This document shows, piece by piece, positions 30,201 to 34,870 of a stretch of DNA of 64,000 bases (position 1 is its first letter; each line of letters starts with the position of its first letter). Made by a program: the position numbers. Source of the DNA: Escherichia coli (GTDB lineage: Bacteria; Pseudomonadota; Gammaproteobacteria; Enterobacterales; Enterobacteriaceae); the NCBI RefSeq assembly GCF_003018235.1, contig NZ_CP027437.1. One strand, given 5' to 3'.

Positions 30201-33200
30201 CGATGGATCAGCGATAAAGCTAGCAACATGTGCGGTGCTTGAGTTGCCAGTGACTTTCACGGTTGTCTGTGTCTGTATTGTTACGCCGTTATGGAACGAT
30301 GCAGTCACCGTATATGTACCGACTTTATTGCTGGTCAGAACGACTGGTGCCTGACCTGAAGAGTTGGTTCTCACTTTTCCGCCACTTAACGTTGCACCTT
30401 CTGGCGTTACGCTAAAGTTGATGACCTGACCTTCCACTGGAGTGCCATTTGCAGAAGTTAGCGTTGCCGTCAGAGTTGCACCTGTTGGGGAATTGACACC
30501 GATAAGCGGGCTGGACGCCGTGAGTGTCAGTTTTTCATCAATAGCCTCCAGTTGTTTCTCAATTGAGGCTCCATTCGCCAGGGATGCTTTCACCATATAC
30601 GAACCGTTTCTTTCGGGCGTCATGGTGACCTCGGCTATACCCTGCGTATTAGTAGACACCGTATTCTGGCTGATGATCATTTGCGAGGATGGCTCTGCAC
30701 TGAATGTCACGGGTTGATGCGCAACCGGGTTGCCAAACTGGTCGTTAACGTGAGCTTTAACTGCTACGTCTTGTGCGACCATTACCTGACCTTCAGGTAT
30801 CTCCAGACTGGTAAACGTCGCAGAATTAACATCTGCACTGGCATTCAGTAATCGCGAGATGACTTCAGTAGGTTTATCTGCCAGAGAGGCTGAAACTGTT
30901 TTCAGTCCGACCTCGGTGCTTGTCACAAGAATTTCAGCGAATCCCTGACTATCCGTTTCAACGCTGGTGCTGCTTAGCGTGACGGAGGTTCCGCGGAAAT
31001 TAACTTTTATGCCTTCTACCGGGTTGCCGTTAGCGTCAGTGACGCTTGCCGTCATGGTTGCGCCCTCGGTCGTGCTGACGACGAATGAGTATACAGAGGT
31101 TAAGGAGGTCAGTTTTGCGGTACCAGCATCGGCAATCAAAGTCACCTGTTTCGTATCACTGACACCATAATTGATCACGCTAACTGTCACGGGATAAGTG
31201 CCGGATTTTGTACCGCTCAGTGTAACTTCAGCCTTGCCGTTGATGTCAGTAATGGCGGAACCGCCTTGTCCGAGAGTGAAGCTTGCGCTTACATCTGCCG
31301 GTAGCGTGAATGTCACCGCCTCATTGGCTAACGGGTTGCCGTTTCCATCAGTCACTGTTGCCTGAAGTGTGGTCATCCCAACGTTATTGGCGATAAAGTT
31401 GTCCTCGGTAACGTTAAGATTAACCTGCGCAGTGAGCGTATCCGCAATAAAGTTCACCACCAACTGCTCACTCTTACCGCCAGTCATCGATGCTGTAACA
31501 GTATGAGCGCCTGCTTTTGTACCTTTCAGCGTGACTTTCGCTTTGCCGTCAGTATCAGTAATCGCTTTACCGCCATCGCTCAGCGTGAAGTTCGCCCTCA
31601 CATCTTCCGGCAGAGTAAATGTTACCTCAGTGTTGGCTATCGCATTGCCCTCTGTATCAGCGACTGTTGCTGTGAGTGTCGTGAGATCGTTATTGTCGGC
31701 AATCACCGGATCCTTCGAGGCTGCCAGCGTGATTTCAGCATTCGCGACGTTCGGCACATAGGTCACTGTTTGTTGCATCGAATCGCCATTGTCGAGGGTT
31801 GCCGTCACTTGATAAACCCCGGCTTTTGTAGCGGTAAAGCTTGCGTAAAAATAGCCGTAGTAGTTGGTAGTATATATACCGTTATTACTGAGGGTCACGC
31901 CTTCACTTGGTGAAACGCTGAGGGTTACCTGATGCTGGGGTACACCATTGCCGTAATTATCCTTCACCTCAATATACAGACTGGTTGTCTCGCCTGCAGA
32001 GACTGTATCAAAAAGTGCATGTAGCAAGGTGAGATGTGCTGTAGACGCATCCGCGTTGACATTAATTGATGTGCTAAGCGTGGAGTTACCATTTTCCAGA
32101 CTGGCCTCAACGGTATCCGGTCTCGCTCCTGATTCTATCGAGGAGCGGGTATTGGTATAAGTGACGGTTGCCTTACCCTGTTCGTTCGTTACGGCTTGGC
32201 CGCCATTCGTCATTTCGGCAGAGTTTGTTCGGCTGGTGAAGTTCACAGTCACACCTTTCACCGGAAAGCCATTATTATCAACGACTGTGGCGGTAATGAC
32301 GCTGCCGGTGCTGTTCTGCGGGGTACCGGCGATTATGCTGTCTGGGACAGGCGTCAACTCGATAATTTTTGCCGCCGCTGTGTCGCCAATAAAATGCACA
32401 GTTTTGTTGTCGCTGGCACCATTATTAGCCAGTGATGCAGTGACCGTCTGCTCACCAAAGGCAACGCCTGCGAGAGTGGCCTGCGCGATGCCAGACTCAT
32501 TGGTATTACTCACTCCCGGGGTCAGGGTGAGTCCTGAAGAGGCTGAGCTGAATGTTACCGGAAGATTGTTCACCTCATTGTCGAACTGATCTTTAACCGT
32601 TGCAGTTAGCGTTGCGTTATCGACGCCATTACCTGTGATCTCATCTTTTGACATCTGCAGGACAACCTGAGCCGAGGTTTTGTCCGCCACAAACGTTACC
32701 GGCTGCGAATCACTGGTATTGTTATTACCCAGCGTTGCGGTAACCGTATGCGTGCCCGCTTTTTTGCCTTTGAGGGTGACATGCGCTTCGCCATTGGCCT
32801 GAGTGATGGCAATACCGTTACTTTCGAGGGAAAAGTTTGCCGCAACGTCCTGTGGCATGGTGAAGTTCACCGTTATTCCCGCCACCGGATGATTCGACGG
32901 ATCTTTCACCGTTGCCGTCAGCTGCACGCTGTCACTGTTATTCGTCACCACCTGTTGAGCAGGGATATTCAGCGTGACCTGCGCGTTGCTGGCATCGGGC
33001 GCAATATTGACTGTCTTCGTATCGTTGTTGCCGTTAGGCAGTGTGGCTTCGGCTGTATGAACACCCAAAACCGTGCCCTTAAGGGTAACTTCAGCAATAC
33101 CGTTCTCATTAGTATTACGCGCGTTCAGGCTCAGTTGTGTGTCTGCGGGGGAGGTGCGGAAGGCTACTGACAGATTTTTAACCACATTATCAAAAGGATC

Positions 33201-34870
33201 TTTCACTGTTGCTGTCAGCGTCGTCTCATCCACGCCATTCTCAATGATTTCCGCTTTCGATGTTTGCAGAACGACAACCGCGCTGTCCTTATCCGCCACG
33301 AATGTGACTGGCTGCGCATCGCTGGCATTATTGTTACCCAGCGTTGCGGTAACCGTATGCGTGCCCGCTTTTTTGCCTTTGAGGGTGATATGCGCTTCGC
33401 CATTGGCCTGAGTGATGGCAATACCGTTATTTTCGAGGGTAAAGTTTGCCGCAACGTCCTGTGGCATGGTGAAGTTCACCGTTATTCCCGCCACAGGATG
33501 ATTCGACGGATCTTTCACCGTTGCCGTCAGCTGCACGCTGTCGCTGTTATTCGTCACCACCTGTTGAGCAGGGATATTCAGCGTGACTAGCGCGTTGCTG
33601 GCATCGGGCGCAATATTGACTGTCTTCGTATCGTTGTTGCCGTTAGGCAGTGTAGCTTCGGCTGTATGAACACCCAAAACCGTGCCCTTAAGGGTAACTT
33701 CAGCAATACCGTTCTCATTAGTATTACGCGCGTTCAGACTCAGTTGCGTGTCTGCGGGAGAGGTGCGGAAGGCTACTGACAGAATTTTAACCACGTTATC
33801 AAAAGGATCTTTCACTGTTGCTGTCAGAGTCGTCTCATCCACGCCATTCCCAATGATTTCCGCTTTCGATGTTTGCAGAACGACAACCGCTCTGTCTTTA
33901 TCCGCCACAAACGTCATGGGCTGTGTATCGCTGACATTGCTGTTAGCCAGACGAGCCGTGATCATATGCGTGCCCGCTAACGTGCCGGTCAGGGAGGCGA
34001 TGGCAATCCCGTTGCTATCCGTCATGCCTTTTCCGCTGTTGCTAATCGAGAACCGACTTGCGACGTTGTTTGGCACAGAGAAAGTGATTTCTTTATCTTT
34101 TAGTGGGTTGCCATTTTTATCCTGCAAGGTTGCCGTCAGCTGTTGAGGCGCTGTGTCGGTGACGGTGATCTCGCCTGAGGGCACACTGAGGGTCAGGGCA
34201 GCAGTACTTTGATCACCGATAAAATTCACCTGTTGACTAGCCTGGGAACCAGAGCTGACAGAGGCCGTAACCGTATAATCACCATTTTTCAAACTGGTCA
34301 GCGTGGCTGTGGCGATCCCGTCGTGGCTATTCACTTCGGTTTGGCTCAGTTTCGCCTCTGCTGAATTAACATTGAAGGTGACCTTGACGTCATTGAGCAG
34401 GTTGCCTTTTGCATCCCGGACTGTCGCGGTCATTGTGGCGCTGTCATTGCCGTCAGCGACCACTTCATTTTTCGACTTCTGCAGATCAACCTGCGCGGTG
34501 CTCGAGTCGCCGACAAAACTGACGATTAACGTTTGTTTCACGCCATTTTCAAGGGTGACTTCAACCGTGTTGTCTTCCTGCTTACTACTTTTCAGATCAA
34601 AATTCGCCAGACCATTAACATCCGTTTTTGCGGTGTTTTGATTGTTAAAGGAAGTTGCCGATCCGCTTAATACCGCAAACGTGACGGTATGATCATTGAT
34701 TGGGTTGCTCCCTTCATCAGCGACATTGACCGAGACGGTGTTTGCTGCATTCTCATTGGCGAGCACACCATTATTGCTGGCAGATAATGTCGCAATTTTC
34801 GCTGACTGCGGGTTGGCGTCGATGATAAATCCAGCGGTATGCAAATCTTCATTCCAGTTTTGCATTAACA

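Follow-up and report, generated by a model that had tools for sequence, protein, structure and literature searches.

The long variant of the adhesin gene yeeJ in an Escherichia coli genome and its 609-nucleotide tandem repeat

When a gene carries two long stretches of almost the same sequence, one directly after the other, has it just been duplicated, or does an old duplication merely look young? The question is raised by yeeJ, an adhesin gene in the stretch of 64,000 nucleotides (nt) from Escherichia coli contig NZ_CP027437.1 (assembly GCF_003018235.1) that is analysed here, and to which we refer as the window. An initial annotation of the window had described two near-identical units of 203 codons lying head to tail in yeeJ, at 32700-34000, and had read their near-identity as the sign of a recent duplication. 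Here we show that the repeat is real and that the gene is the long yeeJ variant already known from the literature. The explanation that best covers the whole, to which we give a probability of about 0.9, is that this is a long allele of the type known from strain UMN026, whose repeated module would have been duplicated once, long ago, and then reshuffled by recombination.

The gene and its repeat

On the minus strand of the window, an open reading frame (ORF) of 2685 codons (29031-37088) contains yeeJ. Translation from the ATG at 37013, which is the start annotated by RefSeq in K-12 and in O157, gives a protein of 2660 amino acids (aa) with no internal stops.

29031..37013, minus strand: yeeJ coding sequence, long variant, inverse autotransporter adhesin, 2660 aa plus stop, 7983 nt
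35757..36584, minus strand: IAT_beta outer-membrane barrel domain, aa 144-419 (Pfam PF11924, E=8.4e-113, model 2-279 of 279, full length)

After the barrel, Pfam finds 11 Big_1 matches in aa 672-1838 of the passenger (the last one clipped by the end of the scanned piece) and 5 further ones in the last 823 aa, with Invasin_D3/D4 matches also present in the passenger. With its N-terminal IAT barrel and its passenger of tandem Big_1/Invasin_D3 domains, YeeJ is an inverse autotransporter (type Ve) adhesin. Weaker matches were a LysM domain (E=0.32, aa 80-99), Intimin_C PF07979 near the C-terminus (E=0.027) and, when four repeat domains were compared with solved structures, 5LDY, the closest by sequence (E=8e-4). 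The LysM domain of K-12 YeeJ is reported to be functional (PMC5595812), and the N-terminal region has 95-100% DNA identity to K-12. The name yeeJ was rightly given in the initial annotation: the gene is collinear with K-12 yeeJ at 96.7% nucleotide identity once 906 nt are set aside, and it lies in the shared order serU - mtfA - asnT - yeeJ - glycosyltransferase family 9 gene, found likewise in the K-12, O157 and LR-62-2 records, which makes it the yeeJ orthologue. A 100% identical protein of 2660 aa is recorded at NCBI (WP_158709024.1).

A direct-repeat search of the window returned a pair of copies within yeeJ at a start-to-start spacing of 609 nt, a repeat that Tandem Repeats Finder, with its maximum period of 500, did not report. 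In a self-comparison at offset 609, which displays the tandem directly, identity rises from a background of ~30% to 93-100% across ~32700-33300. The best 609-nt frame sets 32699-33307 against 33308-33916, with 583 of the 609 positions identical (95.7%), and a near-identical core, 32725-33281 against 33334-33890, has 15 mismatches in 557 nt (97.3%); depending on the frame, the two units differ at 26-35 positions. This is a repeat beyond chance. Its 609 nt amount to 203 codons in frame with the yeeJ ORF, and each unit holds one 90-aa and one 97/98-aa Big_1 domain (Pfam, E from 4e-16 to 2e-19). The head-to-tail arrangement, its extent (32699-33916 in the best frame) and the gain of about two Big domains per unit thus all stand as first described. 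In the flanks, identity drops to 55-75%, which is still above background since the adjacent Big_1 domains are paralogues of older date. In the list below the domains carry the letters c to h, and A and B are the block types described further on.

33906..34196, minus strand: Big_1 domain c, directly before unit 1 (Pfam)
33276..33884, minus strand: repeat unit 1, gene nt 3130-3738, short Big_1 d and long Big_1 e, type [5'A,3'A]
32667..33275, minus strand: repeat unit 2, gene nt 3739-4347, short Big_1 f and long Big_1 g, type [5'A,3'B], the A-type 5' block being the rare feature
32388..32666, minus strand: Big_1 domain h, directly after unit 2, an older paralogue with about 56-59% DNA identity to d and f
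33334..33890, minus strand: near-identical core, upstream copy in the protein sense, from the 557-nt comparison
32725..33281, minus strand: near-identical core, downstream copy, from the 557-nt comparison and the offset-609 profile

A weaker and older periodicity of ~300-309 nt, at 67-79% identity, also runs through the passenger (31184-31373 against 31493-31682, for example), and 32410-32451 has copies at +300, +909 and +1518; it comes from the Big_1 paralogues that lie beyond the 609-nt units. On the plus strand, three ORFs of 108-140 codons lie antisense to yeeJ within the repeat (32748-33170, 33073-33411 and 33264-33590) and are most likely spurious frames opposite a long gene.

A known long variant among several lengths

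The yeeJ of the window, at 7983 nt, is exactly 906 nt longer than that of K-12 (7077 nt). The alignment places the whole difference in one 906-nt gap at gene nt 3210-4115 of the window gene, spanning Big_1 domains d to g, and an offset analysis follows K-12 along the window to gene nt ~3209, after which it resumes 906 nt further along; excising 906 nt after nt 3209 leaves a gene of 7077 nt that is collinear with K-12 at the identity given above. The breakpoint falls in a 23-nt motif, CTGAC(A/G)GCAAC(A/G)GTGAAAGATCC, which encodes LTATVKDP and occurs once in each repeat domain (33805-33827, 33508-33530, 33196-33218 and 32899-32921). The two copies that concern the K-12 form are the outer ones:

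33805..33827, minus strand: 23-nt motif CTGACAGCAACAGTGAAAGATCC (LTATVKDP), domain d, bounding on the left the 906 nt missing from K-12
32899..32921, minus strand: matching 23-nt motif with 2 mismatches, domain g, bounding on the right the 906 nt missing from K-12

K-12 MG1655 YeeJ (b1978, 2358 aa) has the same barrel, Big_1 array and C-terminal region as the window protein, with the 96.7% nucleotide identity holding outside the indel. It has a single hybrid Big_1 domain, the first ~27 aa of d joined to the rest of g, where the window has the four domains d, e, f and g. The K-12 short form would then be the product of a 906-nt in-frame deletion between two copies of the 23-nt motif.

Two length variants of yeeJ, those of MG1655 and UMN026, were described by Martinez-Gil et al. 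(2017, Sci Rep 7:11326; PMC5595812), who found that yeeJ-UMN026 equals yeeJ-MG1655 plus a 906-bp fragment with three additional Big domains, "made up of a repeated section". In their survey 11/42 genomes had the long variant, as did 8/26 and 17/44 of the yeeJ-positive strains in two collections, and polymerase chain reaction detected it in the ECOR collection; in biofilm assays the K-12 and long variants behaved alike, and aggregation or adhesion was seen with neither (PMC5595812). In the literature after that paper, nothing further on yeeJ length variants was found. The gene, the asnT-adjacent locus and the 906 bp (three extra Big domains) gained in the passenger over MG1655 are common to yeeJ-UMN026 and the window. 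The window therefore carries the published long variant and the feature was already known, the assignment to the UMN026 type being made by length, place and domain content, with O157, LR-62-2 and other 7983-nt alleles as stand-ins for the UMN026 sequence itself. What the published account, with its two length variants, does not contain is the 609-nt two-domain unit, alleles of one and three units, and the A/B mosaics. From the common long allele, as represented by O157 and LR62, the window allele differs by the A-type first domain of its unit 2.

How unit number varies was read from a census of 5426 complete E. coli genomes. Of these, 2915 have the part of yeeJ that bears the repeat and ~2500 lack it; the junction of one unit with the next, which marks at least two units, was found in about 1219 genomes, and the K-12 type in ~1650. 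Single 2427-nt matches to a synthetic three-unit query retrieved natural three-unit alleles, whose gene measures 8616 nt in N3 and 8613 nt in strain PCN033. In 28 genomes the unit is matched three times, with a middle unit of type [B,A], and N3 adds one more (~29), while O157:H7 TR01 and AR_0077 have one-unit alleles of 7374 nt, a class bounded at roughly 27 genomes (1246 - 1219); each of these two classes is rare, at about 0.5%. The number of units thus differs between strains: one in TR01 and AR_0077, two in the window and O157, three in N3 and PCN033. The comparison of yeeJ lengths across strains sorts into classes of 7077, 7374, 7983 and 8613/8616 nt, and these one-, two- and three-unit alleles, together with the K-12 "half-unit" allele, bear out the earlier suggestion that the site is prone to expansion and contraction. 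The best protein-database matches are of 2660/2669 aa (two units) and 2863-2880 aa (three units), in a search where extra units raise the score and three-unit proteins rank above the exact match. No four-unit allele was seen among the 120 best-scoring database proteins, the longest having 2880 aa.

The genes of N3, PCN033 and strain MEW stand 21-24 nt above what unit arithmetic gives (8616/8613 against 8592, and 8007 against 7983). A second, small length polymorphism must exist elsewhere in yeeJ, which fits the protein classes of 2870/2879 aa as against 2863/2872 aa.

Mosaic units and the origin of the array

Units were excised from ten alleles at gene nt 3130, 3739 and 4348 and compared. In the common long allele (O157 SS17 and ERL05-1306, and LR-62-2), unit 1, or A, and unit 2, or B, are 87.5% identical, and their 76 differences comprise 34 in a 5' block (unit nt 62-200), 28 in a 3' block (495-609) and 14 in the nearly identical 300-nt middle; the 5' block has 14 amino-acid-changing codon differences in 50 codons. 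When each unit is written as its 5' type followed by its 3' type, O157 and LR62 are [AA][BB], the window and O158:H23 are [AA][AB], N3 is [AA][AA][BB], PCN033 is [AA][BA][BB] and AR_0077 is [AB]. The single unit of TR01 is in essence unit 2 of O157: of the 76 distinguishing sites, 75 are B-type and only the first is A-type. Among the same 120 database proteins, the 5' blocks run A-A in 9, A-B in 15, B-B in 1, A-B-B in 87 and B-B-B in 8. Such mosaics are the products expected of unequal crossover at varied points in paired units, or of gene conversion. An origin of the B-type 5' block as a copy of some other Big domain in yeeJ was considered and rejected, the best paralogue of the block being d at 77% and the next h at 56%.

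These types account for the appearance of the window. Its 557 nt at 97% identity, against about 87% for whole units as a rule, arise because its unit 2 bears an A-type 5' block. An A-type junction at an identity of at least 98.8% is found in only 4 complete genomes: O158:H23 CFIAFB20140388, MEW and NY1601, which share the window subtype at 99.3-99.8% across the unit junction, and the three-unit strain N3, at 98.8%. The near-identity marks a rare allele subtype, known from three two-unit genomes and one three-unit genome.

How old, then, is the duplication? The canonical units have a synonymous divergence (dS) of 0.39 over their whole length; it reaches 0.65 in the 5' block and falls to 0.165 in the middle, where the units are presumably kept similar by conversion. 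Between alleles, taking the window against O157 outside the repeat, dS is 0.06-0.11. The value for the canonical units is far above the allelic one, which argues that the duplication is old. The joints between domains point to how it may have happened. In O157 SS17, the sequence of domain e agrees with g until about 90 nt before the unit boundary and, from about 40 nt before it, with the end of c; the last ~30-40 nt of c, with the joint to d, are ~97% identical to the joint of e with f, and the same end-of-c and end-of-e sequences are present in the window. This joint looks like the trace of a single unequal crossover that brought the end of c together with that of an ancestral long domain. 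Since the same 3'A block occurs in every non-terminal unit examined, a single origin of the duplication can be argued.

Put together, a module of 203 aa (609 nt) with two Big_1 domains would have been duplicated once, long ago, by an unequal crossover that joined the end of c to the end of the ancestral long domain and so left the hybrid junction at the end of e in every multi-unit allele examined. Later homologous recombination between units, by unequal crossover and gene conversion as far as the alleles suggest, would have reshuffled the array into alleles of one, two and three units with mosaic A/B types, and the window allele would be a rare subtype with a domain of the unit-1 (A) type at the start of unit 2. 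The longest mismatch-free stretch shared by the units measures 83 nt in the window and, in O157, 74 nt. Perfect runs of 74-83 nt suffice for RecA-dependent exchange in E. coli, and they agree with the one-, two- and three-unit alleles observed.

Several points weigh against this account. The ancestral state is deduced from the junction analysis alone; an outgroup search with a degenerate 33-nt unit-start pattern gave 0 matches over one genome per species. The divergent B 5' block may be an import from a distant relative and not the result of old divergence in place. Three routes could have led to [AA][AB]: unit 1 may have converted unit 2, an N3-like three-unit allele may have contracted, or different alleles may have recombined after horizontal transfer. 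The census counts are approximate, being search summary counts that depend on how matching pieces are joined. TR01 has one unit where other O157:H7 genomes have two, which hints at a recent contraction and could equally be an assembly collapse. Finally, the effect that each unit would have on the stalk, taken up in the last section, rests on analogy with the family, and the published comparison of the variants found no phenotype.

Three other explanations were weighed against the old duplication with later reshuffling. The one that survives best, and which we still consider unlikely, is that module number and A/B type are kept by selection for length or antigenic variation, the A-A allele of the window being a selected variant. 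The coexistence of many unit compositions speaks for it, as does the number of amino-acid-changing codons in the 5' block. However, the ratio of nonsynonymous to synonymous divergence (dN/dS) is well under 1 in the divergent blocks (0.28 and 0.06), which gives no support for positive selection on them; the biofilm, aggregation and adhesion assays showed no functional difference (PMC5595812); and alleles with one or three units are both rare.

A recent, strain-specific tandem duplication of one 609-nt unit, with copies that have hardly diverged, is the reading first proposed, and it fares considerably worse; we hold it to be highly improbable. An identity of 97.3% across the 557-nt core would suit it, and so would the small number of genomes with the subtype among the 5426 (three two-unit genomes plus N3); and, since the single unit of AR_0077 is 98% identical to unit 2 of the window, a one-unit [AB] allele could in principle have been duplicated again. 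However, dS between units 1 and 2 of the window is 0.077 over the first 495 nt, equal to the divergence between E. coli alleles, and most of the sites that differ between them are polymorphisms shared with the units of other strains, so the window units are not fresh copies of one another. The 3'A junction is moreover the same hybrid as in all long alleles examined, and the allele occurs in strains of varied source, CFIAFB20140388 being Canadian, MEW from an ivory gull in Poland and NY1601 from chicken faeces. The step from near-identity to a recent event finds no support in the wider sample either, in which about 1219 genomes share the tandem and the usual units are 87.5% identical with a dS of 0.39.

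An assembly artefact, in which one genomic unit was written twice, is conceivable in principle for repeats of ~600 nt, which exceed short reads, and has no direct support; it is extremely unlikely, as the copies differ at 26-35 positions with the reading frame intact, more than 20 independent NCBI contigs encode 2660-aa proteins identical or nearly so to that of the window, the same junction stands at 99.3-99.8% in three independent complete genomes, and at least two units are found in 1219.

Surroundings of the gene and meaning for the adhesin

The neighbours of yeeJ and the elements beyond them are as follows. A lambdoid-looking Shiga-toxin (Stx2j) prophage, inserted at serU beside mtfA, asnT and yeeJ, runs from about 38536 to beyond 64000.

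18710-18785, 21118-21193, 22942-23017 and 37327-37402: four tRNA-Asn (GTT) genes in 19 kb, an arrangement known from K-12
37327-37402: tRNA-Asn (asnT), yeeJ neighbour
37503-38339: mtfA, yeeJ neighbour
38394-38483: tRNA-Ser (serU), yeeJ neighbour
38536-39561, minus strand: 341-aa ORF at the position of the integrase in other genomes, with no NCBIfam match
39823-42294, minus strand: exonuclease VIII-like gene of the prophage
55210-55285: tRNA-Met, just upstream of the Shiga toxin operon
55353-56402, plus strand: Stx2j subunit A ORF (NCBIfam NF041689, 743.9 bits against a curated cut-off of 720)
56422-56685, plus strand: Shiga toxin B-subunit ORF, 87 aa, after the A subunit

In other genomes the yeeJ locus is disrupted. 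Insertion sequences (IS) of the IS1203/IS3 family split yeeJ at or beside the repeat units into two pseudogene fragments in O157:H7 cattle-hide isolates and in O145:H28; the insertion lies at 6218-7523 of the extracted locus in O157:H7 strain 4276 and at 4245-5699 in O145:H28 RM12581. Matches of 717-810 nt to a 410-nt junction query were considered as further repeat variants and set aside, the two that were inspected (O157:H7 and O145:H28) being such insertions. On the upstream side of yeeJ, O145:H28 has a type VI secretion gene cluster in place of asnT-mtfA. The repeat region closest to that of the window, at 99.8%, belongs to O158:H23 CFIAFB20140388 (NZ_CP076709.1), yet there the 5' part of yeeJ is lost (1-3672 of the extracted locus): an IS110-family transposase and a "replication endonuclease", which are IS110 and phage-like genes, stand in the place of the barrel-coding part, and yeeJ is annotated as a pseudogene without its N-terminus. 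The asnT site by yeeJ has been described as a hot spot of recombination and island integration and suggested as the cause of many truncated yeeJ genes (PMC5595812), an idea in line with the ~2500 of 5426 complete genomes that are without the repeat-bearing part.

What might the units do? Like intimin, invasin and FdeC, YeeJ has an IAT_beta barrel, then tandem Big_1/Invasin_D3 domains and a putative lectin-like tip (the Intimin_C match being the weak one given above), and it differs from them in having many more stalk domains. In the intimin/invasin family, the stalk of Big domains projects the tip away from the membrane. By analogy, each unit would lengthen a rigid immunoglobulin-like stalk that holds the C-terminal lectin-like tip off the outer membrane; if the stalk is read as a rod, a unit would add two rod domains, and the YeeJ of the window would have three more than K-12 and two more than a one-unit allele.

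Whole-domain repeats that are in frame and vary in number between strains, presumably by homologous recombination, are also found in streptococcal alpha C/Rib and in staphylococcal Aap/SasG, where the repeats are many and nearly identical and copy number ranges widely. In YeeJ, unlike in these proteins, copy number spans 1-3 units, with no longer array among the best database matches, and the units are usually ~12% diverged. One idea, which we regard as speculative and rather doubtful, is that the two-Big module of YeeJ forms a cassette array driven by recombination, of 0.5, 1, 2 or 3 modules and with swappable A/B types, by which E. coli lineages tune stalk length and surface epitopes. If so, it could allow the adhesin to reach past O-antigen or capsule, or to evade antibody, and the A-A allele of the window would be both a selected state and a better substrate for expansion and contraction.

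Beyond annotation the significance is small, this being the published long variant of yeeJ. In practice, short-read calls of yeeJ length and of single-nucleotide polymorphisms in this region need caution, for example in genome-wide association hits in yeeJ (PMC12547504). What is added is that the 906 bp by which the gene differs from K-12 can be broken down into a 609-nt two-domain unit and a putative deletion between 23-nt motifs, that alleles of one and three units and mosaic A/B units give yeeJ more length variants than the two published, and that the near-identical copies of the window mark a rare allele subtype.

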